Of a stretch of 64,000 nucleotides of DNA, positions 23,047 through 40,326 are shown piece by piece. The notes under the pieces are model-generated. The model made no database searches. It had not been told where the DNA came from and saw only the letters and a list, made by a program, of their open reading frames with translations. Both the position numbers and the translations under genes were made by a program. Each line of letters begins with the position of its first letter. Position 1 is the stretch's first letter. This DNA is from an uncultured Bacilli bacterium. Its GTDB lineage: Bacteria > Bacillota_I > Bacilli_A > RF39 > UBA660. Location: the NCBI GenBank assembly GCA_944358415.1, contig CALVRA010000003.1, forward strand, positions 17,790 to 81,789. The letters are read 5' to 3'.

Positions 23047-23982
23047 TTAGTTATAAATGATTTTAGCTATACCATTACAATAAGTATTTATTAAATCAAT
23101 GATTTCACTTGCAACGTCAAGTAAATATTCCGTGCTGGTATCTTCATTACCTTCAATAATAATTAATATATTTTTAGTGTTTTCATCTACTATAGTGTTT
23201 TTATTTTGATCTATTTCTAATCTTTGAATTACTTGTATTTCATCTTTATATATATACTCTCCTATATTAACGTTTTTTTCTTCATTATTTTTATTAGTAT
23301 AGGTCTCAGACTTTTTTGTAATATTTAATGTTACATTTCCTTTTATCTTATCCTTATCATGGATAAAAATTGGGAGTCTTGAATCTAAAACAGTTATATT
23401 ATATAAATGAGTTAATTTATCTGCTTTAGTAAATTTTTCGCCTTTTAAAAAATGTTTTAATATTAATTCGCTGATTGGAGTATGTTTTCTTCTTTTTAAG
23501 CCTATTTTTTTATGAAGGCTATTAAATCCTCTTAATATTAAATCGTTTTCAATATCAAAATCTTTATATTTTTTTTGAAGAGCGATATAAGCATTATTTT
23601 TAAAGTTTATAAATTCTTGAGTTTCTGTTTTTACGTCAATATTTTCTATAGTTATGGCAATTATTTTTAAGCCTAAATTTAAAGTTTCACGGCTAGCTAT
23701 GAATTTCATAAACTCCTCCTTTATTTTATAAAAATTATATCGTTGTTTGATTAAAATTTCAAGTTGTTTAAATGAAAAAGAAGCATTTGCTTCGAATTTA
23801 TTATTTCCATTTTTTCTAGCAATAAGATCTTTCTTTTGCATTTCAATCATTCTTGTTTTAACTGTTCTTAAAGATTCATTAATCTTTTTAGATATTTCTT
23901 CTTGTTTAATATTAGGGTTAACTTTAATTACATTTATTATTGTTTGTTTTTCTAAAGCGCAATTTTTGCACTTTGAAATCAA
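23047..23982 (-). CDS. winged-HTH segment fused in frame to a B3/B4 (PheT-like tRNA-binding) domain protein
   Basis: The C-terminal ~220 aa starts MKFIASRETLNLGLKIIAITIENIDV and contains RGFNSLHKKIGL, typical of stand-alone B3/4 domain proteins. The N-terminal 91 aa looks like a wHTH. The track start is TTG. A strong internal AAGGAGGAG SD plus ATG is at 23709. Confidence 0.55.
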   Translation of the reverse strand: MISKCKNCALEKQTIINVIKVNPNIKQEEISKKINESLRTVKTRMIEMQKKDLIARKNGNNKFEANASFSFKQLEILIKQRYNFYKIKEEFMKFIASRETLNLGLKIIAITIENIDVKTETQEFINFKNNAYIALQKKYKDFDIENDLILRGFNSLHKKIGLKRRKHTPISELILKHFLKGEKFTKADKLTHLYNITVLDSRLPIFIHDKDKIKGNVTLNITKKSETYTNKNNEEKNVNIGEYIYKDEIQVIQRLEIDQNKNTIVDENTKNILIIIEGNEDTSTEYLLDVASEIIDLINTYCNGIAKIIYN

Positions 23983-24109
23983 AGAAATTGCACTTTGAAA
24001 TTATTTTAACTTTCCTGAACATATTTATCAAATTAATGGGTAAATGATGGGTAGCGTTCTACCAAGTTTGTCAAAAGCTATATAAACGAAAAATGGAGCC
24101 TTTTGGCTC

Positions 24110-24119
24110 CTTCAGGGGG
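24110..24119. repeat. att core copy 1 (CTTCAGGGGG), left junction of island A
   Basis: Identical 10-mer at 24110, 40317 and 52473. It is preceded by the hairpin GGAGCC-TTTT-GGCTCC (24095-24110). Confidence 0.75.
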
Positions 24120-24220
24120 GCCTGCTCTCTTCAGTTAGAAGAGACCGAATTGTATTAAACCCTTTAAATACGGGCCTTTTTATATTGGCATAAACCCTCA
24201 TTTACCGTGGTTTTTTAGTA

Positions 24221-24246
24221 TTTTTGTACCTAAATTGTACCTAAAA
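24221..24246 (+). repeat. arm-type repeat (2x GTACCTAAA), left end of island A
   Basis: 26/26 identical to 40216-40241. It lies about 100 bp inside the core. Confidence 0.7.
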
Positions 24247-24274
24247 AAAGAATTAGAACCTATTCTACTAACTC

Positions 24275-24667
24275 TTAAAATGAATACTTTTCTCCAAACA
24301 ATTTGCTTTCAACTATACACAATATAGCATACCCTAAAATAAATAGAAATGCTACTAAGTAAAGATTAGTTATAAATTTAGTTATCAATAAAAATAAGCC
24401 TGTTAATATTGCATAATTAATAAAGAATCCAAAACTTCCAATTGACTTTGCTCCACCATTATACCACGTGTGTGTTAAAGCATAAGCAAGAGGAATAAAA
24501 ATACCACCACATATCCAGTTAACAATTGTAGCCATATTAGGGTCTTTAACTATATTAGAAAATGGATTAGGAAAACAGAATTGTCTTATCAAATAGCTTG
24601 CTATGCTTACTAACCCTCTTCCATTGTAACTTTTACTTCTATATCTTCGACTCATTATGTGCATCAC
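24275..24667 (-). CDS. small membrane protein (3 predicted TM), third gene of the OLD-type operon
   Basis: Hydrophobic segments IVNWICGGIFIPLAYAL, FGFFINYAILTGLFLLI and LYLVAFLFILGYAILCIV. The start region overlaps the upstream stop (GTGATG). Confidence 0.6.
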   Translation of the reverse strand: MMHIMSRRYRSKSYNGRGLVSIASYLIRQFCFPNPFSNIVKDPNMATIVNWICGGIFIPLAYALTHTWYNGGAKSIGSFGFFINYAILTGLFLLITKFITNLYLVAFLFILGYAILCIVESKLFGEKYSF

Positions 24668-25908
24668 TCCTTATCAAGAAAATTAATAAATTTATTTATA
24701 TTCTTTTTATATGAAAAATATTGATCTGCAGAAAAAACTTTTGCCTCATTTGGTAACATTCCTTTATCTTCATACTCTTTTTTATTAATGTTAAAATGAT
24801 TTTCTAAATCCACATCAAATAATTTAACCTTTTTACTATATTTTTCTTTCAAATACAATGTTATACCATATGCTGTATTGTATCTTTTTGACTTTCCTTT
24901 ACACTTTTTATCACTATCTGTTATTATAATAATTTCTTTTCCTATCTTAGTAAATAATTCAGCAAAGAAAATCATAAAAGCTTTCCCATAGGTTACAAAG
25001 AAAAAATCATCATGTAATTGTTCAATATTCAGTTTTCTAATAATTCTATTCTCAGAGGCACCCTCAACTAAAATAATTCTTTTATAAAATAAGGCTCTAT
25101 AAAATTGTTCAGATTTCAGTGCATCATTCAAGTATAATTTAAACAATTTGTTATCTTCATAGTAATGCATTTTCATAGTTATTCCCTTATCAATATCTAA
25201 GTTTTTAGTCAGTATATATTTTTCAAAATCTTCAGTGCATGTTCTATACATTTTTTTTATATCTTTTAAAGATTGATATATAAGACTATTTTTATAATTA
25301 GATTCTTCAACATCAAACCATTTATTTATAAAAACTATGTTATCCATTGGTATTTTAAGTAAATTACACAAACTATAACTATGCGTAGCTACAACTAATT
25401 TAATATTTGCTTTTTTTAGCATTGAAAATAATACAGAAATTTTTCTTAGGCCTAAATCATCTAAAAAATTTTCTGGTTCATCAAAAAAAATAATTTTTAT
25501 AGGATTCATAAAAGTATTAAAAACTATGTTAAAAATATTAAAAACTTTTTCTTGCCCCTTTGATTTATTCTTTACTGAATTATAAAAATCAATTTCTTTC
25601 TTACAATAAGACAATAATTCTATTAATCTTTTATCAATTTTAACTACTTTTATTTCTTCTCTTTCTTTAGTTTCACCATAATATTTAGATTTTGGATATA
25701 GTAAATATTCATATGTTTCTAACTTAGGAATAGCATTACTACGAAACATTTTAACATCTAATGTGCCTTCTTCTGAAATATATATACTTTTACCTTCTGT
25801 AATATCTTGATACTCCTTCAAAGTATATGTTTTTCCACTACCATTTGATCCAATAAGAAACAAAGGATCATAACAATTATTATTTAAATATCTATTTATC
25901 ATTGCCAA
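24664..25908 (-). CDS. OLD-family nuclease (compact ABC-type ATPase fused to Toprim domain)
   Basis: Walker A GSNGSGKT, signature-like SKGQEK, Walker B IIFFDEPENFLD, H-loop VATHS. Toprim motifs ILVEGASE and IIITDSD. The likely ATG at 25902 overlaps the upstream stop. Confidence 0.8.
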   Translation of the reverse strand: MAMINRYLNNNCYDPLFLIGSNGSGKTYTLKEYQDITEGKSIYISEEGTLDVKMFRSNAIPKLETYEYLLYPKSKYYGETKEREEIKVVKIDKRLIELLSYCKKEIDFYNSVKNKSKGQEKVFNIFNIVFNTFMNPIKIIFFDEPENFLDDLGLRKISVLFSMLKKANIKLVVATHSYSLCNLLKIPMDNIVFINKWFDVEESNYKNSLIYQSLKDIKKMYRTCTEDFEKYILTKNLDIDKGITMKMHYYEDNKLFKLYLNDALKSEQFYRALFYKRIILVEGASENRIIRKLNIEQLHDDFFFVTYGKAFMIFFAELFTKIGKEIIIITDSDKKCKGKSKRYNTAYGITLYLKEKYSKKVKLFDVDLENHFNINKKEYEDKGMLPNEAKVFSADQYFSYKKNINKFINFLDKE

Positions 25909-27256
25909 TTACCTCCAGTAAGTTATAGCAAAAATAATCAAATAATTGTTTTAATTCCTCTACAGTTGGTTTATATTTATTATTCATTATTTTTTCTAAT
26001 GTAATAAAACCTCTTTCGTATTTATACAATTCATTAAACTCTACAGAAAAAAGTTTTAACAAATTATCTATCTTATCTTTTAATTCTTTTGATGTTCTAG
26101 GAAGATCTAAACTTAAACCAGACTCGAATGCTATATCAAAATAATTTTCAAACACTTTCTTACCAATTTTTTGATATGGATATTCATATTTATCATAGTC
26201 AAGCTTACAATTAAGTTGCCATTCAAACATAGCTTTTGAGATTATGCCCTTACATTTTTTCCTTACATTATACTGTTCCAGTTCTTTTTTTACTTCATAA
26301 GGAAGTTTATTAAATTCACCTTCCCAAAACACTACTCTATTTCCAACAAAATCTACTAACACTGAATCCTTTGTATGCATATCAATCATTGATAATTCAA
26401 TAAATATATATCTTTCCTTCAAGTATTTTAGGCATTTATTGTTGAATACTATTAATCCAGCATCCATATCATCATTCCAATTGCTTTCATCTATCTTCCT
26501 TATATTTCCATTTAATTGATTCGTTATAATATCTAAATTTCTATCCTTTGGAATCACAAAATCTATATCTATAGTACCTAGTAACCAAACAAAATCATCT
26601 CTTCCTTCTTTTGTTATTAGACATCCACTATCAACATATTTATCAAATTCTTTTATATTATTAATTTTATCTCTATATTCAAATTCAATTGATAGTTCAT
26701 ATTGAGGATAATGATTTTCTTCACTATTAACATAATCAGAAATTGATTCCTTTAAAAATAATATTTCATTATCTCCTTTTGAAACTAACACGGGCCATTC
26801 ATTTGTTGAAAATGTTACATTATAATAAACCAAATTAGCTACATTTTTTGTATCTTGTACTTTTTCATATATGTAAGAATTGTTATCATTGTATAAATAT
26901 GGATTCAATGTATATATACTATTTCTATAAAAATTTTTTTGTACAATTACATTGTAAATATAATTTCCAATATCATTTTTTTCACGATCATCAGAGCCAT
27001 CAATAAAGCCATATTGTAAGTTGCCTTTTAACCAAGTTTGATTAATTTCAATACCTTTTGGTCTTAGTATTAACTTGGCATAAAATTCACCATTGTAATC
27101 TTCCTTTTTTGTAGATAAAAATGATCCCTCTTTATATATTCCAGGAATGTAATTGTCAATATCATACGAATGATAAAAGTCTTTTATGCATTTTACAATT
27201 TCTTCAACATTGCTACATTTTCTAAGTTTTTCCAGCATATTTCTTCCTCCAATCAA
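25892..27256 (-). CDS. hypothetical protein, first gene of the OLD-type operon (no recognisable domain)
   Basis: ~448 aa from ATG 27238 (GGAGG 7 nt upstream). It is translationally coupled to the OLD gene. I recognise no motifs. Confidence 0.65.
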   Translation of the reverse strand: MIGGRNMLEKLRKCSNVEEIVKCIKDFYHSYDIDNYIPGIYKEGSFLSTKKEDYNGEFYAKLILRPKGIEINQTWLKGNLQYGFIDGSDDREKNDIGNYIYNVIVQKNFYRNSIYTLNPYLYNDNNSYIYEKVQDTKNVANLVYYNVTFSTNEWPVLVSKGDNEILFLKESISDYVNSEENHYPQYELSIEFEYRDKINNIKEFDKYVDSGCLITKEGRDDFVWLLGTIDIDFVIPKDRNLDIITNQLNGNIRKIDESNWNDDMDAGLIVFNNKCLKYLKERYIFIELSMIDMHTKDSVLVDFVGNRVVFWEGEFNKLPYEVKKELEQYNVRKKCKGIISKAMFEWQLNCKLDYDKYEYPYQKIGKKVFENYFDIAFESGLSLDLPRTSKELKDKIDNLLKLFSVEFNELYKYERGFITLEKIMNNKYKPTVEELKQLFDYFCYNLLEVIGNDK

Positions 27257-27294
27257 AAAAGAGTATATTCCATCTTAAAAATGAAACATACTCT
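27254..27294 (-). terminator. terminator-like hairpin in the leader of the OLD-type operon
   Basis: The minus strand reads AGAGTAT-N21-ATACTCT followed by T6. It lies between a TGTTATAAT extended -10 (27316-27308) and the SD (27250-27246). Confidence 0.45.
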
Positions 27295-27369
27295 ACTATC
27301 TAAATATATTATAACATCTTCAATCTTTATTTTAAACTGTTTTATACAACAATAACACAATTTAATCTA

Positions 27370-29427
27370 TTATATTTGATCAATTAAATTTAATAATTGT
27401 TCAACTTTTTCTACAATTTTATCTTGCTCCTCTTTTGGTGGAACAGGAACAGTCATTGGAGCAAATTCAGATATCCAATAACGTTTATGAGTAGATGCAT
27501 CATAATCAAGAGATTGTAACAAATAATAGTAAAATTTTATATTCATCTCCGGATTGCAATTTAATATTTTCATTGCAGATGATTTAACTTTAAATGGGAA
27601 ATCAACATATTTAGACGAAGTAGTAAAATCATCAAATATTATAACTGGCAATTTATTAAATATCCCAGTTTCTTCTTTAGTATATCCTAATATAAAACTC
27701 TTTCCTGCAGTTAAAACAGGTATTTTATAAGCATCACTATAATTTGTTGACTCAACAATATATTGTGTTGGTTGTTCATACACTAAAATATTTCCAAGGG
27801 TATCCTCAGTCCAATTATCTGGATTTCCATATAATTCACCATTAACAGCCAAATAATATAATTTCTTTTTCATCAATTCTACAGATGAGGCCAAATCTCT
27901 CTTCTTGTCAGACATCTTTTTTATATCATCAATTTCTTCAGTTATAGAGGCAGAGTCATTTTTTAATACCTTTTCAACACATTCAGTAATTCTATTGATT
28001 CTGTTACTTTCCTTTTGAATCATATCAAATATATCATCAATTTCTATATTTTCAATATTATTATCTTCAGTTATCCACTTAATATCTAAATTATAATTTC
28101 TATCTTTAATTTGTTGATAGGAAAATTTTCTCCATCTACCATTTGGATTTTCTTCAGACCAAGTTTCCTTTCTATCATAAATGTTCTCTGAATTATAACA
28201 TTTTATAAAATCATTTAAATCTTCATCTTTAATTGGATTCTTTTTTAATGTAAAATGACTTCCAGCTCTTAAATCATATATCCATACTTCTTTAGTTTGA
28301 ACATCTTTTGAAGCCGGTTTATTATCAAAGAATAGAACATTGGCTTTAACGCCTTGTTTATAAAATATACCTGTTGGTAATCTTAAAATTGTATGAAGAT
28401 TTGTTGTTTCTAATAGTTTTTTTCTTATTATTAATCCGCCAGATCCTTCTTCAAATAAGACATTATCAGGTAATACTACAGCGGCTTTACCATTAGATTT
28501 TAGCAATGTATGAATATGCTGTACAAAGTTAAATTGCTTATTTGAACTTGTAGTCCAAAAATCTTGTCTGTTATATACTAAATCTTCATCTTCTTGTTCA
28601 CCATCTTCATTTGTGATTGTTAATGTTGATTTTTTTCCAAATGGCGGATTAGTTAATATGTAATCAAATCTTTCTCCAGGATCTGATAATAATGCATCAT
28701 TTCTTGTAATAGGAGATTTACCGTCAACATCACTAATATTATGCATAAACAGGTTCATTAAACAAAGACGATATGTACTTTGAACTATTTCCCAACCTCT
28801 GAATGTATTATATTTTAAAAAGTTCTTATCTTTTTCTGTTAAGTCATAATTGTTTTCTATGTATTCTTTAGATAATAACAAGAACCCTCCAGATCCACAG
28901 CATGGATCGACAATGGTTTTATTTGGTTCTGGTCTAACACATTTTACCATTGCATTAATTATTGGTCTTGGAGTAAAGTATTGCCCTGCTCCACTTTTTG
29001 TATCCTCTGCAATTTTTTGTAGCAATCCTTCGTAAATGTCACCTTTAACATCTGATGACAAAGCAGTCCAAGTTTCTCCATCTATCATATTAATAATCTT
29101 AGATAACATGGCAGGAGTTGATATTTTATTGATTGCACCAGAGTATATTTCCCTTAACATACCATCCTGTTCTGATAATGACTCTAAAATCCCATTATAA
29201 TATTTGAATAATTCTGCACCTTTTTTTGATTTTAATTCATCCCAACTACAATTATCTGGTAGCTTAATTCCTTTTTCAAATGGTGGCTTATTATATTCAT
29301 CTATCATTTTTAGAAATAATAAATATGTAAGTTGTTCAAGATAATCTTGATTTGAAACACCATCATTCATTAGGACAGTTGCCATGCTCCATACTTTTTT
29401 ATTAATTGTTGAAGTTCCCTCACTCAT
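27370..29427 (-). CDS. hsdM: Type I R-M methyltransferase HsdM fused to a single-TRD (half) HsdS
   Basis: HsdM_N-like N-terminus, motif I DPCCGSGGFLL, motif IV NPPFGKK. The C-terminal ~190 aa is a coiled-coil spacer, one TRD, and the conserved HsdS helix PVPPKEEQDKIVEKVEQLL. Confidence 0.85.
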   Translation of the reverse strand: MSEGTSTINKKVWSMATVLMNDGVSNQDYLEQLTYLLFLKMIDEYNKPPFEKGIKLPDNCSWDELKSKKGAELFKYYNGILESLSEQDGMLREIYSGAINKISTPAMLSKIINMIDGETWTALSSDVKGDIYEGLLQKIAEDTKSGAGQYFTPRPIINAMVKCVRPEPNKTIVDPCCGSGGFLLLSKEYIENNYDLTEKDKNFLKYNTFRGWEIVQSTYRLCLMNLFMHNISDVDGKSPITRNDALLSDPGERFDYILTNPPFGKKSTLTITNEDGEQEDEDLVYNRQDFWTTSSNKQFNFVQHIHTLLKSNGKAAVVLPDNVLFEEGSGGLIIRKKLLETTNLHTILRLPTGIFYKQGVKANVLFFDNKPASKDVQTKEVWIYDLRAGSHFTLKKNPIKDEDLNDFIKCYNSENIYDRKETWSEENPNGRWRKFSYQQIKDRNYNLDIKWITEDNNIENIEIDDIFDMIQKESNRINRITECVEKVLKNDSASITEEIDDIKKMSDKKRDLASSVELMKKKLYYLAVNGELYGNPDNWTEDTLGNILVYEQPTQYIVESTNYSDAYKIPVLTAGKSFILGYTKEETGIFNKLPVIIFDDFTTSSKYVDFPFKVKSSAMKILNCNPEMNIKFYYYLLQSLDYDASTHKRYWISEFAPMTVPVPPKEEQDKIVEKVEQLLNLIDQI

Positions 29428-29440: not shown

Positions 29441-32224
29441 CTAAGCTAATAAAGCATAATTTAATTCAGCTAATATTTCTCTAAATTTTGCACCAAACAA
29501 TTGGAAAAATTTAGCCAATCCACCCTTGTTATTAAAAGGTGTTAATTCTAAATCGCTTTCTTTTATATTCATTGAAATAGCAATATGATCTTTAATCATT
29601 CTTAACCATTCCATTTGTTCTTCACTGAATTCTCCATATCCTTCGTTTTGTTTAAAGCACCACTCTTTAAATTTAATATTAACAATTGTATTAAATGATT
29701 TTAATTCAGTTGTTTGCTTTAATTCAAATTTAATTAAAGATATGATATCAGCGAGTTTGTCTTCTACTCTTGTAGATACTTTATCACCATAAATAGTTGA
29801 ATAAGCTTCCCATAATTTAGTATTTGATAAAAAATATGGAGCACTCATCATTTTTTCATATAATTCTTCAACCATTTTATAAGTTAACGGTCTATTTTTA
29901 TAACTTTGATTATAAATAATATTTAATGCATCTATTGAATCTTTATTTTCTTCAATAAATTCTGCAAATGTTTTAATTATTTCTTTGGCTTTTTCTTCTT
30001 TATTTGTATCCCAGCCAGAAAACTCAATTGAATCTATATTTTCATTATCAATAATTTGATAATGCTTATCTCTAGCCTCAAGAATAAATTTTCTAACTTC
30101 TGGATTATATATTGGTTTAATAGCTAAATCAATAATCTCTTGTTTTGTTGATTCATATTTACTATTTTCATCTGAAGATTCAATTTTTGAATTAATATAA
30201 TCATCATCAAATGCATTTAAAATATTCTTCGCAACATCTATTATTGCTACACCGTCAGTCATTTTTTTAAACTCTTCTTTATCTTCTGTTTTAAGCACTT
30301 TATCCAAATTAATAAATCTATTTGCTATTGATGTCAATGTATCTTCATCTTTTGCACCAAATGCAACACTATTTAATAAGTTTTTAAGTGATTCACTTGG
30401 CTTTCTTTCTAATTGTCTAGAAGTTGTTTTTTGTGATGATGTAACACCTACAGCATCTACAACTATAAATCCTAATTTTCTTTCTGTTGCTGATGGTGAT
30501 ACTTTTTTTAAATTATCTAGATCTAAAGTTCTTGTAGCTCTACCTAGCATTTGTTCAAAATAATTCTTGCTTCTTACATCTCTCATGAAAATTAAACATT
30601 CAATAGGTTTAACATCTGTTCCTGTAGCAATCATATCTACTGTAACAGCAATTCTTGGATAATAATCATTTCTAAATGCACTTAAAATTGATTTTGGATC
30701 TTCATCAGAGCCATAAGTAATTTTTTTACAAAATTCATTACTTTCACCGAATTCTTCTCTTATAATATCTACGATATCATTAGCGTGACTATCTGTTTTA
30801 GCAAATACTAATGTTTTAGGAACTTCTTTTCTTCCTGGAAACATTTCTGTTAATACCTTTGACTTAAATTCTTTAATAACATTTCTAATTTGTGATGGAT
30901 TAACGATATCATTATCAAGTTGACTTGCTGAATAAACAACATCTTCATCTAATTGAGACCATCTTTTTTCTTTAGATAATCTTTCTCTTGTTTCAACAAC
31001 TTGTTTTAATATACAAGCACCGTGCTTTGTGATATTTGTTTCTATTAAATATGTTCCTTGTCTTCCAACATTAACATCATCTAAAACTGCCTGCTCATGT
31101 GAATACTCTGATACGACATTTTCATTAAAGAAAGCAAATGTCCTTTGATCTGGAGTAGCTGTTAATCCAACTAAAAATGCATCAAAATAGTCTAATACTT
31201 GTTGCCATACATTATATATTGATCTATGACATTCATCGATAATTACAACATCAAAGAAATCTATTGGATATTTTTTGTTATAAGATACTTCTTTTGGCCT
31301 TTCATTTTTAAATGACTTTTCTGATAATGATGATTCTTCATCTCTTTCATCCAATTCAAATCCTCTAAGAATTGAATACATTCTTTGAATTGTACTAATA
31401 CATACATGGGTGTCATTTGGAATATATGATGAATTAAGTCTTTTAACATTGTATAATTCTCCAAATAATCTACTATCATCATTTGGTCTATATTTTCTAA
31501 ATTCTTCTTCAGCTTGTTCACCTAAATTTTTAGTATCAACTAAGAAAAGAATTCTTTTTGCTTTTGCATATTTTAACAATCTATATACGGAAGTTATAGC
31601 AGTAAATGTTTTACCAGCACCTGTTGCCATTTGAATCAAAGCTCTAGGTTTATTTTCAGAGAATGATTTTTCCAAATTAACAATAGCATTAACTTGACAA
31701 TCTCTAAATCCATTTGCATCAAGTTCTGGAAATTGTTTCATTCTATTTCTTAAAGTATCATTATCTTTTAGTAATTGTTCTAATTCTTCTGGTGTATGAA
31801 ACATAAATATTTCTCTTGATCTTGCCTTTTCATCTTTGTAGTCACAAAATCTAATTATAATGTTTGTACATTCATAAGCAAATCTGATTTCAGGTTGCTC
31901 TTTTAATCCTCTTAATCCACTTTTAATATATCTTAAGGATTGTTCTGCCACTACACCTAGCGTTGTTCCTCTTTCTTCTTTTTTTGCCTCAATAACACCA
32001 ACTGGTCTACCTGCTATAAATATTAAATAATCTACAGGTCCACTATAGGTTTGTGCCTCTCTTAAAATAACACCTAAAGATGCTGTAGGATTAAACGAAT
32101 CAATATTTTGAATTACAAAACCTGCTTCTCTTAATTTTTTATCAATATCTATTCTTGCTTTGGCTTCGGGATTTAAATTTAAATCTTCTAATTCCATACT
32201 ACTACCTCTTACTTCCCATTTCAT
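29441..32224 (-). CDS. hsdR: Type I restriction enzyme R subunit (HsdR) with EcoEI-R-like C-terminal domain
   Basis: SF2 motifs MATGAGKTFTA, IIDECHRS, GLTATP, QMLGRATR. N-terminal nuclease-like region. C-terminus FSEEQMEWLRMIKDHI...GGLAKFFQLFG. Confidence 0.9.
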   Translation of the reverse strand: MKWEVRGSSMELEDLNLNPEAKARIDIDKKLREAGFVIQNIDSFNPTASLGVILREAQTYSGPVDYLIFIAGRPVGVIEAKKEERGTTLGVVAEQSLRYIKSGLRGLKEQPEIRFAYECTNIIIRFCDYKDEKARSREIFMFHTPEELEQLLKDNDTLRNRMKQFPELDANGFRDCQVNAIVNLEKSFSENKPRALIQMATGAGKTFTAITSVYRLLKYAKAKRILFLVDTKNLGEQAEEEFRKYRPNDDSRLFGELYNVKRLNSSYIPNDTHVCISTIQRMYSILRGFELDERDEESSLSEKSFKNERPKEVSYNKKYPIDFFDVVIIDECHRSIYNVWQQVLDYFDAFLVGLTATPDQRTFAFFNENVVSEYSHEQAVLDDVNVGRQGTYLIETNITKHGACILKQVVETRERLSKEKRWSQLDEDVVYSASQLDNDIVNPSQIRNVIKEFKSKVLTEMFPGRKEVPKTLVFAKTDSHANDIVDIIREEFGESNEFCKKITYGSDEDPKSILSAFRNDYYPRIAVTVDMIATGTDVKPIECLIFMRDVRSKNYFEQMLGRATRTLDLDNLKKVSPSATERKLGFIVVDAVGVTSSQKTTSRQLERKPSESLKNLLNSVAFGAKDEDTLTSIANRFINLDKVLKTEDKEEFKKMTDGVAIIDVAKNILNAFDDDYINSKIESSDENSKYESTKQEIIDLAIKPIYNPEVRKFILEARDKHYQIIDNENIDSIEFSGWDTNKEEKAKEIIKTFAEFIEENKDSIDALNIIYNQSYKNRPLTYKMVEELYEKMMSAPYFLSNTKLWEAYSTIYGDKVSTRVEDKLADIISLIKFELKQTTELKSFNTIVNIKFKEWCFKQNEGYGEFSEEQMEWLRMIKDHIAISMNIKESDLELTPFNNKGGLAKFFQLFGAKFREILAELNYALLA

Positions 32225-32250: not shown

Positions 32251-32312
32251 ATACAATTCGACAAATTTTGATATTTTACGACCAATTCGTACCAGAAATT
32301 ACCGAATTGTAT
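32251..32312. promoter_or_regulatory. inverted repeat ATACAATTCG / CGAATTGTAT over the hsdR promoter region
   Basis: 10-bp perfect inverted repeat (32251-32260 and 32303-32312) with a related CCAATTCGTA between. The left arm (32251-32260) abuts a minus-strand TGTTATAAT extended -10. ACCGAATTGTAT recurs at 24144-24155. Confidence 0.45.
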
Positions 32313-32341
32313 GAATAATCTTGACTATTTTTCAATTTTAA

Positions 32342-32698
32342 GTGATTAATACAAGGAATTGGAGGAATTGTATGATTAGAAAATGTACTGATGAGGATAT
32401 TTCTGATGAAGAATTAGAAAAAGTTATAAATCCTTTTTATGATAATTATCATGAGTATATTATTACTTATGTTATGCCTGAAGTAATTGCATTTTATATA
32501 GCTAGTTCTTATAGTAGGAATGCTATGTGGGAGGCTACGTTTTATCAGCATTATAATTCAGCTAAGGATATATTTAATGTTAGTGATGATGAAGATTATG
32601 AGAAGGTTAAGGCTGAAGTAATTAAACTATTAAGAATGAAGTATTCTTTAGAAATTATTAGTGAAAATCCATTAGATTTTAAAAAAATTGAGTATTAG
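32342..32698 (+). CDS. hypothetical acidic protein
   Basis: The likely start is ATG 32372 (GGAGG upstream). Divergent from hsdR. No family recognised. Confidence 0.5.
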   Translation: MINTRNWRNCMIRKCTDEDISDEELEKVINPFYDNYHEYIITYVMPEVIAFYIASSYSRNAMWEATFYQHYNSAKDIFNVSDDEDYEKVKAEVIKLLRMKYSLEIISENPLDFKKIEY

Positions 32699-32788
32699 TT
32701 TTTGTTCTAATACTCTTTTTGTTTTCCAAAAAACTCACGGAAAATTTATTTTTGTGTGAATGTATGTGGGCTGTGGGTGTGGAAAAAA

Positions 32789-33160
32789 TTATATTTTTGG
32801 ATTACCTACCCTCCGGGGGACCTCTAATAATTCATATAATTCTTCTTTTGTTATTATTCCTTTTTCTGCTTGTTCATGATGCATTCTACATAGTGTAATT
32901 AAATTATCACTATCAAGTCTTTTATTATAATCTTTTGCTATTGGTATGATGTGATGTACTTGTAGATTATCATAAGTATATACATTATCTTTTAAACATA
33001 ACTGACATAAATACTTATCTCTTTTCTTTATTTGATTTCTTTTCTTAATCCAAGCATTAGTATTTCTAAACTTACTTTCTATAGTATTCTTCTTATATGA
33101 CCTTTTACACATTTTATCTTCTGGATGTATCCTACCACATACTGAACATGATCTATACAT
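32789..33160 (-). CDS. HNH endonuclease (phage-type)
   Basis: CxxC...C zinc ligands plus HHIIP...N..TLCRMHH, the HNH core. Confidence 0.85.
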   Translation of the reverse strand: MYRSCSVCGRIHPEDKMCKRSYKKNTIESKFRNTNAWIKKRNQIKKRDKYLCQLCLKDNVYTYDNLQVHHIIPIAKDYNKRLDSDNLITLCRMHHEQAEKGIITKEELYELLEVPRRVGNPKI

Positions 33161-33588
33161 TATTCTAAATATTTCTTGTCATTACCTTTTAATTTATTAG
33201 ATGATTTATTAATATACTTTTGCATATCTTCTAATAAAAATCCTGGTATGATTCCTCTTTCTATCCATCTAATTGATTTATCATAGTTTCTTTCTTCTTG
33301 TTCTGGTGATAATGGTACTATTCCTAATTTGAAGTATCCATCTTTTTTCATTTGTTCTAAAATAGATAAATAATAATTATTCTTAACTACTTTAGTTTTA
33401 TCTAAGATATCATGTATAGTTGGCATATAAGTTCTTTCTTTACAAAGTTCTATAATTGCTTTTTTAAATACTTCTGGTTCTATGTCTTGTAACATTTCAT
33501 ACCATATTGAAATATCATCATTACTAATTACTTTTTGATAACAAGATGATAGTATTTTGATTCCTTCTACAAAATCTATTTTATCCAT
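33160..33588 (-). CDS. putative replicative-helicase loader (SPP1 G39P-like)
   Basis: ISIWYEMLQDIEPEVFKKAIIELCKERTYMPTIHDIL resembles the G39P-family N-terminal motif. It lies immediately downstream of the replisome organizer. Confidence 0.45.
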   Translation of the reverse strand: MDKIDFVEGIKILSSCYQKVISNDDISIWYEMLQDIEPEVFKKAIIELCKERTYMPTIHDILDKTKVVKNNYYLSILEQMKKDGYFKLGIVPLSPEQEERNYDKSIRWIERGIIPGFLLEDMQKYINKSSNKLKGNDKKYLE

Positions 33589-34402
33589 TTTGTCTATCTC
33601 TCATTTCCTTAGCTCTTATAATTTCTTCTAAAGATATATCTTGAATAGTTTTAGCTTTAGCTTGTTGATGTAAGTATCTTTCAAATTTAGGGCCAAATAA
33701 AGTTTCTGGTGTAAGATATGGTTTCATTTTAGGATTATTAATCCACTCGCTTGTTTTCTTATCTATAACTATTTTAATATCATTAATTGTATATTTTTTT
33801 AATATATTAGCTATTAATTTCTTATACTCATCTATTAATATAAAATTAGAATTAGTTTTATAGTTTAAATAGTCTATTATGTCTTGATACTCTTTTTTAT
33901 TTATTTCTATTTCTTTTTTATTAGTTATAATTTCTAAATTATGTTTATTAGTTTTATTATCTATATATACCTTACTATTTGGCTTACATTTTTTCTTACA
34001 TTTTGACTTACTTTTGTCAGGATTCTTAATTCTATATTCTCTCATATTCATAGCACCAACTGTTGTTTGATTAGTAAGTACTAATGCATCCTCTATATAA
34101 TATTTATCATCTCTTTTTTCCATCATTCCTGTATCTAAAAAATAATCAATAGCATCATTTATTAGTTTTTCTGAATGATTAGTTTCTACTGCTAATTCTT
34201 TTATAGAATATGGAATTCTTTTAGATCCTACTTTTTTTATTAAATAACCATCTTTATTTATTGTCTTAAATATTAGTTTAAAATATAGAATTATTTTCTC
34301 ATATCCATTAGGTTGATTTTGCAAATATTTTAATACATCATTATCAAAAAAATTTGATTTAAGCATAAAGTAATAATATTTTTCTTTATTATAAGTTCCC
34401 AT
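33581..34402 (-). CDS. phage replisome organizer (Phage_rep_org_N plus conserved phage C-terminal domain)
   Basis: YYYFMLKSNFFDNDVLKYLQNQPNGYEKIILYFKLIF N-terminus. C-terminal YLNYKTNSNF...TLFGPKFERYL. Confidence 0.8.
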   Translation of the reverse strand: MGTYNKEKYYYFMLKSNFFDNDVLKYLQNQPNGYEKIILYFKLIFKTINKDGYLIKKVGSKRIPYSIKELAVETNHSEKLINDAIDYFLDTGMMEKRDDKYYIEDALVLTNQTTVGAMNMREYRIKNPDKSKSKCKKKCKPNSKVYIDNKTNKHNLEIITNKKEIEINKKEYQDIIDYLNYKTNSNFILIDEYKKLIANILKKYTINDIKIVIDKKTSEWINNPKMKPYLTPETLFGPKFERYLHQQAKAKTIQDISLEEIIRAKEMRDRQNG

Positions 34403-34661
34403 GCTTAGAATTATTAATTGATACTAAAAAATCTATATTGATCTTAAAATAATCAATTACTTTCTCCATTGGTACTAAATTATTAGGTAGTTTAAATCCA
34501 CTTGATATAATTTCTTCTGATATTTTATTTTTAATATCTCTTGCTTTATTTCTTCCCACAGCACCTATTTTCATTATATCTTGTACAGTAGCCCACTGAC
34601 TATTTAGTATTTCTAGCATTTCATCTGCCGATAATATTGTTTTACTTTTCATTTTTTTCAA
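34389..34661 (-). CDS. small HTH protein, putative excisionase/regulator (paralog at 50249-50476)
   Basis: ~40% identical by eye to the island B protein (..SQWATVQDIMKIG..LPNNLVPMEKVIDYFKINIDFL vs ..KQWCNLDDLMKLS..LPKGLLPMCEVVAYLKINIDYL). Its position equals xis in satellite layouts. Confidence 0.5.
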   Translation of the reverse strand: MKKMKSKTILSADEMLEILNSQWATVQDIMKIGAVGRNKARDIKNKISEEIISSGFKLPNNLVPMEKVIDYFKINIDFLVSINNSKHGNL

Positions 34662-34680
34662 TCTCCTTTTTATTATTTCA

Positions 34681-34706
34681 TTAAAGTTTACCAGACTCTT
34701 TAATTA
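34681..34706. promoter_or_regulatory. 26-bp element upstream of the xis-like gene (inverted copy at 35880-35905)
   Basis: TTAAAGTTTACCAGACTCTTTAATTA is the reverse complement (25/26) of 35880-35905. Each copy has the same orientation relative to its downstream gene. Confidence 0.55.
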
Positions 34707-34721
34707 CGATATTTTCGTAAT
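34703..34721. promoter_or_regulatory. palindromic operator candidate ATTACGA-N5-TCGTAAT
   Basis: Perfect 7-bp arms. Related half-sites TTACGAAA / TTTCGTAA occur in the cro-cI intergenic region (about 35110-35155). Confidence 0.45.
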
Positions 34722-34765
34722 ACAAAATTATAAAAAAATATATCGGTACTGCATGATATAAAATT

Positions 34766-35050
34766 CTATTTACTACATACTTCATTTACTTCTTTACTAC
34801 TACATCTAACAATTGGATCGTGTGAAAACTTATAATGCATTTTGATTTCTTCTTTTCTATTAGATACCAATAGATTATTAACCGAAGGTATATTATACGC
34901 TTCCATTATCCTATCAACTAATGGCCATGAAGGAACTGTTCTATGTTTTTCAATGGCTATTAATCTATTCCTTGGTATTCCAATTTTCTTAGCTGCTTCA
35001 TCAATGCTCATACCTAAGTGCACACGAATTGCTCTTAACGTAGCCTGCAC
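34766..35050 (-). CDS. Cro-like XRE-family HTH regulator
   Basis: HTH LGMSIDEAAKKIGIPRNRLIAIEKHR. Divergent from the cI-like repressor. Confidence 0.75.
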   Translation of the reverse strand: MQATLRAIRVHLGMSIDEAAKKIGIPRNRLIAIEKHRTVPSWPLVDRIMEAYNIPSVNNLLVSNRKEEIKMHYKFSHDPIVRCSSKEVNEVCSK

Positions 35051-35183
35051 TTATTTTAACCTCCTTCCTATTTTAATAATATTACAAAAAAATTTAAATG
35101 TAAATAGAAATTACGAAATTTTCATAATTTTACTTGAATGTTTTCGTAAAGTAAGCTATACTTATATTAGAGGAGGTAACAAT

Positions 35184-35837
35184 ATGGATAGCAGAGATGT
35201 TTTTATACATAACCTTAATACGATCATGAAAGAACGCAAGGTTTCTAGAAAAGAACTTGCTAAAGGGTTAAACGTTCCTTACACTACTCTAACAGATTGG
35301 TGTACTGGAAGAATATTTCCAAGAGTAGAAAAAATAAATATGATTGCTGATTACTTCGGTATCAAGAAGTCTGATCTACTTGAGGAAATGATTGAAACCG
35401 AAGATGATTCTTTAGATGATGATACTGTTATTGTTGATGTTTTTTCTAAAATATATTTTGGAGATATAACGTCTGATAAAACTGATGCATTTAAAGTGGG
35501 TGAAGAATTAATACCTCCAGAATGGATAAAAAATAAACACAGTTATTTTGGATTAATTATGCCAGATAATACTATGGATCCTGAGTTTCATCAAAACGAT
35601 TGTATAATTCTTAGAGAACAAAATAAAATGACTAAAGATGGATTCTATTGTGTTATGGAAAAAGGACAAGATATAGCAACTATTAGAAAACTTATTACTA
35701 TTAATGACGGAATAATGGTTATGCCTTTAAATCTTAGTGGCGACTTTAAACCTACTACATATTTAAAAGGCACTGTTGAATTTGAGAACTTTAAAATTAT
35801 TGGTTCTGTAGTTCAAGTTAAAAGATATTATGATTAA
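35184..35837 (+). CDS. CI-like repressor (XRE HTH plus S24 LexA-like C-terminal domain)
   Basis: AGGAGG SD then ATG 35184 (MDSRDVFIHNLNTIMKERKVSRKELAKGLNVPYTTLTDW). The C-terminus is S24-like, but the usual G-D-S-M nucleophile motif reads D-N-T-M. The track ORF 34842-35837 has a spurious 5' extension. Confidence 0.8.
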   Translation: MDSRDVFIHNLNTIMKERKVSRKELAKGLNVPYTTLTDWCTGRIFPRVEKINMIADYFGIKKSDLLEEMIETEDDSLDDDTVIVDVFSKIYFGDITSDKTDAFKVGEELIPPEWIKNKHSYFGLIMPDNTMDPEFHQNDCIILREQNKMTKDGFYCVMEKGQDIATIRKLITINDGIMVMPLNLSGDFKPTTYLKGTVEFENFKIIGSVVQVKRYYD

Positions 35838-35879
35838 AAAAAGACCACTGCTGGAACAGTGATCAAAGTGAAAAATCCC

Positions 35880-35905
35880 TAATTAAAAAGTCTGGTAAAC
35901 TTTAA
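35880..35905. promoter_or_regulatory. 26-bp element upstream of int (inverted copy of 34681-34706)
   Basis: TAATTAAAAAGTCTGGTAAACTTTAA. It is enclosed by a 12-bp inverted repeat, AAATCCCTAATT (35873-35884) and AATTAGGGATTT (35957-35968). Confidence 0.55.
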
Positions 35906-35990
35906 TAATTATAATAAATATAATTTTGGAGATCTCTCGTATTTAATTATATCACCAATTAGGGATTTCTACAAGAAAGTTGGTGAAATA

Positions 35991-37100
35991 ATGGCAGTTT
36001 ACAAAGATCCTAAGCCTACTAAAAATGGTAGAGCTTGGTATTTTAAGTTTAGCTATAAAGATGCATTTGGTGCTACTAAACAATATAGATCTAAAAGATA
36101 TCTAACTAAAAAAGAAGCATCTGATGCAGAAAGAATGTTTTTAGTTACCTCTACTGATAAAGTAGAGGATAACAATATGACATTTAAAGACTTATATGAT
36201 GAGTTTAGAATGCACAATGATGAAATAATGAAAGATACTACTAAATATGGTTATGATAATAAAGAAAAATTTATAGAATGTTTCTATCCTGTTAAAGTAA
36301 AAGATTTTAATATTATGCAATTTGAACAATGGAAACGAGAGATAAATAAACTTAATATATCTCTTAGATATAAAAATGATATTTATAAATTTCTTAAATC
36401 TATTTTAAACTTTGGTGTCAAATGGCATAATTTAAACTTTCAAGCAGTATATAATAAAATGACAAAATTTCAAGATCCTAATGAACGTAGAAAAGAAATG
36501 TCTTATTATACTTATGATGAGTTCAAAAAGTTTATTTCTAATGAAGAAGATCTACGATGGAAATGTGTATTTGAAATATTATATTACTGTGGACTACGTA
36601 AGGGAGAATTAAAAGGACTAACTTGGAAAGATATATATTTTGATAAAAAAGTATTATCTGTTAATAAGCAAATAACGCAAAGAAATAACCGTGTTAAATT
36701 CGAATTCTCGGATACTAAGACAAGAGATAGTAGAAGAATAGTACCTATCACTAAAGTATTGTTAAATGACCTTAAAATGCTCTATGAGCAGGACAAAAAA
36801 GAATACTATGGTTTTAATGATGATTTTTTTGTTGTTTCAGATGCTAAACCTATAGCTGATTCTAATATATATCTTAGAAGAACTAAACTAGCAACACTTG
36901 CTGGTTTAAAAGTTATTAGGACCCATGATTTTAGACATTCATGTGCATCGTTACTTATTAACAATGGTGCTAATGTTACATTAGTTGCCAAATATTTAGG
37001 ACATACAAAAATCGAGGAAACACTAAATACATATTCACATATGTTTAGTACTGCCCTCGACTCTGTAGTTTCTGTTATAGATAGCTTAGAAGATGACTAA
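35991..37100 (+). CDS. int: tyrosine recombinase/integrase (island A)
   Basis: Phage integrase N-terminal SAM-like region. Catalytic HDFRHSCASLLI, LGH and the Y of LNTYSHMF. Confidence 0.92.
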   Translation: MAVYKDPKPTKNGRAWYFKFSYKDAFGATKQYRSKRYLTKKEASDAERMFLVTSTDKVEDNNMTFKDLYDEFRMHNDEIMKDTTKYGYDNKEKFIECFYPVKVKDFNIMQFEQWKREINKLNISLRYKNDIYKFLKSILNFGVKWHNLNFQAVYNKMTKFQDPNERRKEMSYYTYDEFKKFISNEEDLRWKCVFEILYYCGLRKGELKGLTWKDIYFDKKVLSVNKQITQRNNRVKFEFSDTKTRDSRRIVPITKVLLNDLKMLYEQDKKEYYGFNDDFFVVSDAKPIADSNIYLRRTKLATLAGLKVIRTHDFRHSCASLLINNGANVTLVAKYLGHTKIEETLNTYSHMFSTALDSVVSVIDSLEDD

Positions 37101-37101
37101 G

Positions 37102-37995
37102 CTATTTTTTTAATGATTTATACATATTAAAAATATATACTATCATTGCTATCATACTGAAGATAAACGTTAATATGCTATATACAGCAAACCAATACTT
37201 TAAAAATTTATAATTAATAAATAACGGATGAATTGAAATAATAACTTGAGGAACAATTATTCCAAATATAGTTATTAGTAAAAAGGTTAATAAATCAATC
37301 TTTAAGTTGCTATCTATTGCTTTTATTTTACTTTCTATATCTTGTTTTTCAATAATTTTCCAGTTATTGATATCCACAATTTTTGTGTAATCATTTGCTA
37401 AATCTCTTTCCTCCAAGTTTTCTTGAAGAGTAGCAAATTTATTAGAAATATTTAAACTTCCTAAATCAGGAAGACTAATTGGTCCATAATTAGTTCTTTT
37501 TACTTCAGCAAATTTTGAACCAACTTCATAGTAAACCCAGTACATCTCATTGTCATTATATATTTTGTTCTCAGATAATATTTTTTCAATATCATCAAGA
37601 TAGTATTCTCTATCCCTAAATATACTTCCAGCTTTTTTATATGCATCAATTACTTCATTATAAGCTTCTTCTCTTTCTTCTGCAGATAAACCATGTGCAT
37701 CATATTCATCTATATTAAAATCACTTTCAATTACATGAGTATATATTTCATCAATAAAAGCTTCTCTATTATTCTTAAATATTCTTTCTTTTCTTATTTT
37801 AATTCGATTACTATTATACTCAATTTCTTTATTCAGTATATTTAATTTATCAACTAATTCAGACTTTTCTATTTTCAAATTTAACAGCTTTGTAACTAAT
37901 AATCCACCAATAATTGCAATGAATATTCCGATTGTTTGAATGTTTAATTCTGCAAAGTGTAAAATGTTATCCAAATCAAACATACTACCCTCCAA
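37102..37995 (-). CDS. hypothetical membrane protein (N-terminal TM, coiled-coil, C-terminal TMs)
   Basis: IGIFIAIIGGLLVTKLL near the N-terminus, and LLTFLLITIFGIIVPQVII / WFAVYSILTFIFSMIAMIVYIF at the C-terminus. It overlaps the upstream gene by 11 nt. Confidence 0.55.
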   Translation of the reverse strand: MEGSMFDLDNILHFAELNIQTIGIFIAIIGGLLVTKLLNLKIEKSELVDKLNILNKEIEYNSNRIKIRKERIFKNNREAFIDEIYTHVIESDFNIDEYDAHGLSAEEREEAYNEVIDAYKKAGSIFRDREYYLDDIEKILSENKIYNDNEMYWVYYEVGSKFAEVKRTNYGPISLPDLGSLNISNKFATLQENLEERDLANDYTKIVDINNWKIIEKQDIESKIKAIDSNLKIDLLTFLLITIFGIIVPQVIISIHPLFINYKFLKYWFAVYSILTFIFSMIAMIVYIFNMYKSLKK

Positions 37996-38581
37996 ACATA
38001 GATGTAATCAGTGGTAAAAAAGCAATACCTACATCTACACTTTTATCTGCTAACCAAACCATAATTGGCTTTACTTTAGCCCATTTAGTTTTTTTACTGT
38101 CTTTAGACTCGTATATCGTCTTTAATTCTTCAATTTTTTGAAGAGCTTCCTCAGTTTGTTCTTCAGTTAATGACTCATTATCTTTTATATTCTGTACAAC
38201 CGCATTAAAATTTACAGTATTAGTAATAGTGTTAGTATTGGTGTTTTTATTATTGTTGTATATTTTTACACCACTTGAACTTTTACCGTTAAACATTTCA
38301 TATACTCTTAAATCAAGATCTTGTTTATATCCTTCAAGTTTTCCAATCATATTTTCTAAATTTTCAGACATACCACTTTCACCAATAAGTTCATATGCAA
38401 AACCTAAATCATCAGACCAGCCATATTGACTCAAACCCCAAGTATTAATTTTTGATTGATATTTACTATCCATGTATTTATGAATTTTCAATATTTCATC
38501 AATGTTTTTATTGCTCAAAACTTCTTTTATTGAATTAATATCTTTATCAATATCTCTTTTCATTTGATTAACTTTACTCAT
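37985..38581 (-). CDS. hypothetical protein with Asn/Thr-rich linker and C-terminal TM
   Basis: 198 aa with an NNNKNTNTNTITNT linker and C-terminal VDVGIAFLPLITSMFGG. It starts 10 nt after the AbiEii stop. Confidence 0.55.
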   Translation of the reverse strand: MSKVNQMKRDIDKDINSIKEVLSNKNIDEILKIHKYMDSKYQSKINTWGLSQYGWSDDLGFAYELIGESGMSENLENMIGKLEGYKQDLDLRVYEMFNGKSSSGVKIYNNNKNTNTNTITNTVNFNAVVQNIKDNESLTEEQTEEALQKIEELKTIYESKDSKKTKWAKVKPIMVWLADKSVDVGIAFLPLITSMFGG

Positions 38582-39428: not shown

Positions 39429-40071
39429 ACATCATACTCACAAAATCCATAACTTCTTCTTTTATGCCAAACATATCGGCATACTTTGAAAGCTTTATTA
39501 GATCATTGTCCTTTCTTTTAAGATATTCTTTAATTGCATATTTTACATGTTCAAGATCCATTCTCTTTTTAGAACGAATTATATCACATATACATCTTTC
39601 TATATCATAAGCTTTTACCTTATTTCCTTGTGGTGTTTCAACTTCTGTAATTCCAATATTATAAAATTTATCATCTACATAAAAAACATTATGTTTTTTA
39701 AGCTTAGGATTATTATATTTTTTTGTAACAGTTATATCAAAAGAACTATCTGGTGCTTTAATCGAAAGATTATGAAAATAAAGTGCAGTCATATGTGAAT
39801 AAATTATTTTTGGTGTACTAACACTAAGCACATAATATACATCCTCAATCTTATCAGAATCAATATAAATTCCCTTAGCAACTTTTTCTATCATATTTTT
39901 TTTAGTCATAATAGATAGATAATTCCTGCTTATATCAAAATCTTCAAGTTCTTTTGCAGTAATATATCCATTATTTCTTTCCATAAGTTTTTGAATGATT
40001 TCTATATTACTTTCATTTATAAACTCCTCTTTTGTCATAAAATCCATAATTTCACCTCTTTGTTCGTTCAT
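39421..40071 (-). CDS. AbiEi-family antitoxin/transcriptional regulator
   Basis: ~200-aa protein overlapping AbiEii by 8 nt. N-terminal wHTH-like segment (GYITAKELEDFDISRNYLSIMTKKNMIEKVAKGIY). Confidence 0.75.
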   Translation of the reverse strand: MNEQRGEIMDFMTKEEFINESNIEIIQKLMERNNGYITAKELEDFDISRNYLSIMTKKNMIEKVAKGIYIDSDKIEDVYYVLSVSTPKIIYSHMTALYFHNLSIKAPDSSFDITVTKKYNNPKLKKHNVFYVDDKFYNIGITEVETPQGNKVKAYDIERCICDIIRSKKRMDLEHVKYAIKEYLKRKDNDLIKLSKYADMFGIKEEVMDFVSMMYE

Positions 40072-40316: not shown

Positions 40317-40326
40317 CTTCAGGGGG
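40317..40326. repeat. att core copy 2 (CTTCAGGGGG), junction of islands A and B
   Basis: Preceded by the island-A-borne hairpin GAGAGCA-CGGTTAAA-TGCTCTC (40296-40317). Confidence 0.75.

Follow-up and report, generated by a model that had tools for sequence, protein, structure and literature searches.

We have analyzed a 64,000-nucleotide stretch of DNA, here called the window, from an uncultured Bacilli bacterium (RF39; UBA660; assembly GCA_944358415.1, contig CALVRA010000003.1, positions 17,790-81,789, forward strand). The subject of this analysis is a small cassette directly behind a Type I restriction-modification (R-M) operon, two genes of which, A and B, form a conserved pair. B encodes a minimal ATPase-nuclease of the OLD family and A encodes a protein to which no known domain could be assigned. 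In our reading, to which we give a probability of roughly 0.55, the pair is an unnamed OLD-type two-component system against phages or other mobile DNA, in which A, a protein of novel fold, replaces the self-assembly and control functions that B is missing. All coordinates are positions in the window unless a comparison locus (designated L and a number) is named. ORF calling and inspection of the sequence identified three coupled open reading frames (ORFs) on the minus strand, which fill positions 27238-24275:

25892-27238, minus strand: gene A, 448 amino acids from its ATG, or 454 if an upstream TTG is used
24664-25902, minus strand: gene B, 412 amino acids from ATG, 414 from TTG
24275-24664/24667, minus strand: gene C, about 129 amino acids (129-130), with three predicted hydrophobic segments and a PNPF motif
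27246-27250, minus strand: Shine-Dalgarno sequence GGAGG, 7 nt ahead of the ATG of A, found by sequence inspection

The stop of A and the start of B overlap by 11 nt (ATGATAAATAG), and the sequence GTGATG covers the stop of B together with the GTG or ATG start of C. Both overlaps had been described in the original prediction made on this DNA, and sequence inspection found them as described there.

B directly follows A in about 20 independent loci, in which identity ranges from 29 to 96%, and it adjoins A in every locus with room for B. In every locus checked, A and B either overlap or abut. The proteins diverge from those of the window in parallel, with identities for A and B of 96/95, 76/77, 70/70, 52/54, 42/39, 41/40 and about 30/30 percent. 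The families are also similarly small: among 5.8 billion proteins, A has 54 clusters (90% identity; all unnamed) and B has 44; about 40 full-length representatives of A were found among 1.84 billion proteins. When the search was begun from distant homologs of B, the gene upstream, of 454-456 amino acids, was always an A homolog (hhalign E 1e-64 to 1e-69). The original prediction had proposed an operon of three genes. Its three coupled ORFs are present, but judging from gene order across loci the conserved unit is A plus B, not the trio, with C being lineage-specific; the linkage of A homologs to an OLD gene, on the other hand, is strict. The near-equal divergence of A and B, together with genes that overlap or abut throughout, matches what would be expected for a co-evolving, co-translated complex, and a physical complex of the two proteins is predicted from the gene coupling. 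The pair was found in Priestia megaterium, in Clostridium thermarum, on a conjugative plasmid of Bacillus mycoides (where the RefSeq name of A is "hypothetical protein") and in gut and rumen metagenome-assembled genomes (MAGs) of Bacilli, Clostridia and Mycoplasmatota.

In one further locus (L035) B is disrupted. The ORF that follows A there (L035:2536-3684) is B-like, with a Walker A motif, for about 105 residues and then continues into unrelated sequence that by eye resembles a transketolase or 1-deoxy-D-xylulose 5-phosphate synthase; this suggests either a chimeric assembly or a rearranged, inactivated copy. Another locus, L019 (CAZHBQ010000055.1), is a 9.9-kb contig assigned to an uncultured Methanobacteriaceae MAG. 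Its HsdR is 92% identical to the second HsdR of the window and its cassette 76-77% identical to that of the window; L019 is probably a bacterial contig in the wrong bin.

Residues 1 to about 210 of protein B are an ABC ATPase domain, and residues from about 270 to 340 a Toprim domain. It matches Pfam AAA_21 with 30.1 bits, against a gathering cut-off of 27, and OLD-like_TOPRIM (PF20469) with 27.7 bits, against a cut-off of 23.2 and with the full profile (1-67) covered. Every motif that had been predicted for B is found in the translation: GSNGSGKT, SKGQEK, IIFFDEPENFLD, VATHS, ILVEGASE and IIITDSD. When 32 family members were aligned, invariant residues were seen in Walker A (G18, N20, G23, K24), the signature (S114, G116, Q117, K119), the Walker B/D-loop segment DEPENFLD (D141, E142, D148), the H-loop (H174) and the Toprim domain (E280, D329, D331, E367, K388). 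By this alignment B has the complete catalytic residues both of ABC ATPases and of Toprim nucleases of the OLD type. The AlphaFold2 model of B has a predicted local distance difference test (pLDDT) score of 88 and a predicted template-modelling (pTM) score of 0.85, and its 12 top PDB matches in Foldseek are all OLD proteins (E 3e-10 to 7e-6), the best being TsOLD 6p74 (3e-10), retron Eco8 9lpa_B (1e-7) and GajA 8x5i/8sm3. The earlier identification of B as a member of the OLD family is therefore upheld by its ABC ATPase motifs, by an OLD-type Toprim domain with Glu and DxD, by Pfam and by the overall fold.

What sets B apart is its compactness. Query-normalised template-modelling (TM) scores against the OLD structures are only 0.32-0.43, because the domain arrangement differs. 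The Walker B region of B (131-176) aligns with residues 268-314 of TsOLD, so that about 140 residues ahead of Walker B are missing in B; the spacing from Walker A to the signature is only 90 residues, and the model shows a minimal nucleotide-binding domain. A helical dimerisation insert in the ATPase mediates assembly of Class 1-3 OLD proteins into dimers or tetramers (PMC10568477; bioRxiv 10.64898/2026.07.10.737580), and going by that literature the approximately 140 absent residues would be this insert; no OLD dimerisation domain was found in B. The original prediction had also called B shorter than GajA, which agrees with the lengths of the OLD chains matched by Foldseek (454-743 modelled residues; the TsOLD chain sequence has 528 amino acids). 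The PADLOC models Old, AriA, HEC-02A, GajA and AbiLi give weak, partial matches to B. The best AriA and AbiLi profile matches have E values of 4.5e-14 and 7.2e-13, and the AriA match of the window B covers residues 136-179 only. The possibility that B and C form an ABC transporter was rejected, since B contains a nuclease, and C is too small and missing in most family members.

OLD proteins are classified by their partners: those of Class 1 stand alone, Class 2 is paired with GajB, Class 3 with the reverse transcriptase and the non-coding RNA of a retron, Class 4 is the split AriA/AriB and Class 5 is the archaeal Cran1 with a membrane-protein neighbour, while eleven further clades (U1-U11) are uncharacterised (PMC10568477, PMC12796447). 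To judge from gene content and domain architecture, A-B fits none of the defined classes. Class 1 proteins (P2 Old, TsOLD 6P74) have, like B, an ABC ATPase at the N-terminus and a Toprim domain at the C-terminus of one chain, but they are about 520-590 amino acids long, stand alone and contain the dimerisation insert, whereas B has 412 amino acids, about 140 residues fewer, and always occurs with A. Gabija (Class 2) is, as is A-B, a two-gene OLD system, and GajA structures are among the top fold matches of B; its partner GajB, however, is a UvrD-like helicase, A has neither a helicase nor any known domain, and in A-B the partner comes first. No helicase domain was found in either A or C, nor in the genes directly beside the pair. 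Retron-Eco8 (Class 3) has an effector whose fold matches B (9lpa_B, E 1e-7), but the Eco8 chain has about 740 residues and is accompanied by a reverse transcriptase and an msr-msd non-coding RNA, whereas A-B has no reverse transcriptase nearby and no Rfam match in 23900-27450.

The remaining relatives are more distant. B has a weak profile likeness to AriA of PARIS (AriA/AriB), to AbiLi and to HEC-02A/B, and A-B may share with PARIS and AbiL the logic of a sensor that controls a Toprim nuclease; the subclade of the window is in addition linked to Type I R-M. In PARIS and AbiL the ATPase and Toprim domains are separate, whereas in B they are fused; A-B has no DUF4435 protein, and A is unrelated to AriA. 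The gene for Cran1 (Class 5) shares its operon with that of a small protein predicted to be in the membrane, an arrangement also seen in B and C, but Cran1 is archaeal, conserved, essential and acts in the cell cycle, while A-B is sporadic and on mobile elements, with C outside the core (PMC12796447). The claim that the cassette has no UvrD-like helicase, DUF4435 or reverse transcriptase partner stands after the domains of the neighbours were read, over distances of about 10 kb for the window and 6-8 kb for loci with called genes. Neither hidden Markov model nor structure searches place the trio in a named system. The literature, searched by topic and by accession, yielded no description of A-B; the model sets compared were those of PADLOC 2.0.0, which extend up to 2023.

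Protein A of the window has no match in Pfam, PADLOC 2.0.0 or NCBIfam, and only insignificant matches in PHROG (E 0.15 or worse). Among 39 members of the A family there was likewise no Pfam match, and none of the 39 matched PADLOC 2.0.0 at E < 0.01. A profile search of PDB sequences was empty. The AlphaFold2 model (pLDDT 86, pTM 0.72) was compared with PDB and BFVD by Foldseek, with a best E of 0.09 and TM-scores of 0.12 or less among the matches listed. Profile, sequence and Foldseek searches thus bear out the earlier description of A as domain-less. The family has the conserved motifs EFEYR, NxNDDxDAGLIVF, VFWEGEFNKLP and MFEWQL. Its N-terminal half is beta-rich and family-specific, and the C-terminal half (about 235-448) is a portable domain. 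The N-terminal half is not a diverged copy of this domain (hhalign probability 0.1%), and a profile search of PDB with it was also empty.

The portability of the C-terminal domain is seen in a second family, of 212-225 (about 219) amino acids, which matches A at positions 234-445 only (profile search, E down to 1e-29). The two families are about 26% identical and have in common R247, N253, D256, D257, G261, D296, E306, G307, N310, W340, Q341 and P380. In three of three diverse loci the short gene is directly upstream of, or overlaps, a gene for a 1467-1483 amino acid Cap4/STAND protein:

L012:6001-11108: short A homolog and Cap4/STAND protein
L015:6001-11092: short A homolog and Cap4/STAND protein
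L017:6001-11056: short A homolog and Cap4/STAND protein

These partners have an N-terminal Cap4-like nuclease, a STAND NTPase (NPHP3_N, NB-ARC, AAA_16) and a long C-terminal region. The combination of a Cap4-like nuclease and a STAND NTPase is like that of the Avs/STAND NTPase defence proteins; no PADLOC Avs model matched the partners, however, and the approximately 219 amino acid upstream gene is not a described Avs accessory according to PADLOC 2.0.0. The short gene and its neighbour look like a second unnamed candidate defence pair. Since one domain accompanies two unrelated NTPase-nuclease effectors, its distribution argues that this C-terminal part of A has a docking or controlling role towards such effectors, or else senses a trigger that the two share.

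The residues just listed could also be taken to mean that A itself is catalytic, whether as a nuclease, a phosphoesterase or an enzyme that makes or degrades a signal, by way of its acidic cluster, with B or the STAND protein as an NTP-driven sensor or motor. Nine of them (R247, N253, D256, D257, G261, D296, E306, G307 and N310) are kept in both families in spite of the low overall identity. We nevertheless regard a catalytic A as unlikely: no catalytic fold or family was matched, both kinds of partner already carry a nuclease, and conserved acidic residues could equally form an interface.

The surroundings of A-B are rich in defence and mobility genes, among them Type I R-M, AbiE, HEPN, AbiTii, MrcB, GmrSD, integrases, recombinases and insertion sequence elements. 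Because the pair always occurs together in Firmicutes defence islands, it is probably an anti-phage system. In the subclade of the window the cassette is always directly behind a Type I R-M operon, with four junctions and three R-M types, the upstream gene being:

window: the HsdM-S fusion of an EcoEI-type system
L018 and L026: a separate HsdS of the same EcoEI-type R-M
L019: a homolog of the second HsdR of the window
L020, L027 and L028: an EcoR124I-like HsdR (E 1e-247 to 2W00)

In DNA comparisons, homology to the window starts at the promoter (about 27333 for L019, about 27316 for L020) and stops just after C. Cassettes that are 95% identical are found behind two different R-M operons in L026 and L027, which points to recent transfer.

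Such placement would suit a PARIS-like back-up of restriction, in which A would detect anti-restriction proteins (DNA mimics such as Ocr and ArdA), or the failure of R-M, and unleash B. At each of the four junctions the cassette comes directly after the Type I R-M stop codon, cassettes 95% identical follow two different operons, and the same mode of triggering is reported for PARIS, which is a split OLD relative. Most loci outside the subclade, however, have no Type I gene within 6-8 kb, defence genes commonly cluster without functional coupling, and nothing in A is like AriA; a role of this kind therefore seems doubtful to us.

The cassette also carries its own leader, with two elements ahead of gene A:

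27308-27336, minus strand: promoter-like site, TTTAAA, a 17-nt spacer and an extended -10 (TGTTATAAT); scored 10/12, with TG
27294-27260 (with T-run to 27254), minus strand: hairpin of 16 pairs with a loop of 3 and a T-run after it, between the -10 and the Shine-Dalgarno sequence

A hairpin at 27294-27260 with an extended -10 upstream had been predicted, and both are present. The gap from hairpin to Shine-Dalgarno sequence had been put at 16 nt and needs correction, as it is 9 nt (TTTTTGATT) up to GGAGG; the point that there is no room for a promoter between the hairpin and gene A stands even so. The centroid structure of the leader, hairpin included, has an energy of -17 kcal/mol, and the fold of the 96-nt leader has z = -2.6 relative to shuffles. 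Two terminator-like sites were found in 23900-27700 versus 0.5 expected. The spacing between TGnTATAAT and the hairpin is constant in L018, L019 and L020, and upstream of this element the sequence diverges. The unit of TGnTATAAT, hairpin and T-run is nearly invariant in four loci, two of which (L019 and L020) have coding DNA of only about 75-77% identity; changes in the hairpin arms preserve pairing via G-U. On the strength of this contrast in conservation the leader is judged to be functional and part of the cassette. As a part of the cassette that is better conserved than the coding DNA, the hairpin must be traversed by any transcript that reaches A. The conserved hairpin and T-run would insulate the cassette from the upstream R-M operon, and would hold expression low, since every transcript has to read through the hairpin. 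Whether by termination or otherwise, its role may be that of a terminator, an mRNA stabiliser or something else. No Rfam family matched the hairpin (23900-27450 scanned), and it occurs once in the window and is not repeated ahead of other cargo genes.

We think it very improbable that the hairpin is non-regulatory for A-B-C and acts only as the terminator of the R-M operon, as a stabiliser at the 5' end or, at the level of DNA, as a recombination site for movement of the cassette. The extended -10 begins at most about 10 nt from the hsdR stop codon in L019 and L020, where the leader hairpin is the sole terminator between hsdR and the cassette; the hairpin is located at the 5' boundary of the mobile unit, and its conservation exceeds that of the coding DNA, all of which would fit such a role. 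It moves with A, however, and not with any single R-M, a conserved extended -10 is immediately upstream of it, and no counterpart element was seen at the 3' end of the cassette.

A leader that keeps expression low would suit a toxic product, and the pair could be viewed as an addiction or stabilisation module of islands and plasmids, in which the toxic nuclease B is restrained by A and the benefit is maintenance of the element, not defence against phages. The tight gene coupling is in accord with this, as are the locations of the pair, which include integrase islands, a site between serine recombinases and a conjugative plasmid. It is nonetheless an improbable explanation, given that A exceeds B in size and precedes it in the operon, an arrangement atypical of antitoxins, that the neighbourhood is rich in defence genes, and that such ATPase-nuclease fusions are known as defence effectors (PMC10568477).

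If A-B is a two-component defence system, as we favour, its overlapping genes would be co-translated and give an A:B complex, within which assembly, control and recognition of infection, all lacking in B, would be provided by A in trans. The likely sensor would be the N-terminal half, which is specific to the A family. Docking on the NTPase-nuclease partner, or gating of it, would likely fall to the C-terminal half, as the same domain is a separate small protein beside Cap4-nuclease/STAND NTPases. A trigger would then cause an ATP-dependent rearrangement of B and free the Toprim nuclease, which would cut DNA or tRNA. The latter has been reported as a target of OLD/Toprim proteins, for P2 Old and AriB (bioRxiv 10.64898/2026.07.10.737580; PMC12409363). 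Cleavage by B would destroy the invader or abort the infection.

Several points weigh against this interpretation. A defence role is suggested by the gene neighbourhood only. As Cran1 illustrates, membership of the OLD family does not imply a role in defence (PMC12796447). The conserved acidic and polar cluster in A (R247, D256, D257, D296, E306, N310) would fit an enzyme too. Finally, the family was not found in IMG/VR or among GenBank phages, which also led us to reject a phage origin. A bolder version of the proposal, speculative and unlikely to hold as a whole, would make the C-terminal half of A a new immune module that controls both the minimal OLD protein and the Cap4/STAND giants, and the cassette a mobile sentinel behind Type I R-M that fires when anti-restriction proteins disable restriction; this would be a fused PARIS-like back-up with a sensor of new fold.

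Gene C is outside the conserved core. Its hydropathy segments are at about 45-63, 75-99 and 96-124. It directly follows B solely in loci whose A reaches at least 70% identity, with homologs of 89-94% identity in L018 and L025-L027, 62% in L019 and L028, and 49% in L020. A C-like protein of 124 amino acids with the same PNPF motif is encoded upstream of A in the subclade of L021, L029 and L034; C is restricted to these two subclades and absent from others. In the latter subclade the C-like gene is followed by a gene for a 347 amino acid Cys-rich protein, which is homologous to a 327 amino acid gene product encoded downstream of B in L002 (25% identity, E 5e-14):

L021:6452-7959: Cys-rich accessory region, with a C-like protein with three hydrophobic segments first
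L002:10656-11639: Cys-rich accessory gene

Within the subclade in which A is about 41-42% identical, the Cys-rich protein of 327-347 amino acids is thus upstream in L021 and L029 and downstream in L002. The 347 amino acid accessory of L021 has no sequence relative in PDB. From these arrangements, accessory genes are seen to vary around a constant A-B core, and C would be an optional membrane accessory in some lineages.

The cassette is at the end of an island of about 13 kb, with bounds at about 24122 and 37119 as defined by comparison with L018. The other features of the island and its vicinity are:

35991-37100: integrase, island
34842-35837: S24/helix-turn-helix repressor, island
33581-34402: replisome organiser, island
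32789-33160: HNH protein, island
29441-32224: HsdR of the first Type I R-M, island
27370-29427, minus strand: HsdM fused to an HsdS with a single target recognition domain, 685 amino acids, adjoining the cassette
38592-40071, minus strand: AbiEi/AbiEii toxin-antitoxin (abortive infection) pair, between the two R-M regions
40500-48870, minus strand: region of the second Type I R-M, with HsdM (47110-48870), HsdS (45873-47117) and HsdR (42893-45871)
24095-24110, minus strand: GGAGCC AAAA GGCTCC, then T-rich, the nearest G+C-rich hairpin of intrinsic-terminator type 3' of C

The Type I R-M operon that had been predicted upstream of the cassette is real and consists of HsdR and the HsdM-S fusion. 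The cassette had furthermore been assigned to an att-distal slot of the island. It is indeed at the island end, but no att repeats were found: no exact repeat of at least 11 nt links 23900-24400 with 36900-38200. There are no tRNA genes in the window.

The counterpart R-M operon of L018, 90% identical, has a separate HsdM (491 amino acids) and a full HsdS (409 amino acids), and its homology to the window breaks within the S region (window 28007-27791). The L018 island is without a segment of about 3.7 kb (window 32263-35973, with the HNH protein, the replisome organiser and the S24 repressor), and its integrase is present as two ORFs of 200 and 187 amino acids. L018 appears to hold a decayed copy of the same island beside different flanking genes. 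An AbiEi/AbiEii pair also adjoins A-B in L002. After the second R-M of the window there are two domain-less genes, of 586 (40966-42726) and 157 (40500-40973) amino acids. In L019 it is the A-B-C cassette that occupies the same slot, right after the homologous hsdR, so that the slot 3' of hsdR holds variable cargo.

The hairpin at 24095-24110 is just beyond the stretch common to the window and L018, whose homology ends at 24122. Ahead of it is the motif GCCCCCCTGAAG, found repeatedly in the window. Sites of the form (G)CCCCCTGAAG are found on the minus strand at 24110-24121, 40317-40328, 52473-52484 and 54715-54726, and also at L028:9036-9046; the four in the window compare with 0.45 expected by chance, and a short hairpin of terminator type comes after each. 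One of them, at 24110-24121, falls on the island boundary as defined by L018.

OLD-family nucleases are among the most widespread defence effectors, and their activation is known for only a few classes, such as Gabija, PARIS, retron Eco8 and, recently, P2 Old. If confirmed, A-B would be a natural minimal version of an OLD system, in which B does without the self-assembly insert and relies on a separate protein of new fold. It would represent a further OLD class beyond Classes 1-5 and clades U1-U11, and would offer a compact model for the gating of an ABC-Toprim nuclease by its partner, as well as a new domain common to A and STAND-type immune proteins. The repeated placement of the cassette behind different Type I R-M operons is a testable case of layered immunity. 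As the cassette is common in a lineage of human-gut Firmicutes (CAG:321 relatives), such a system would bear on phage-host dynamics in the gut.

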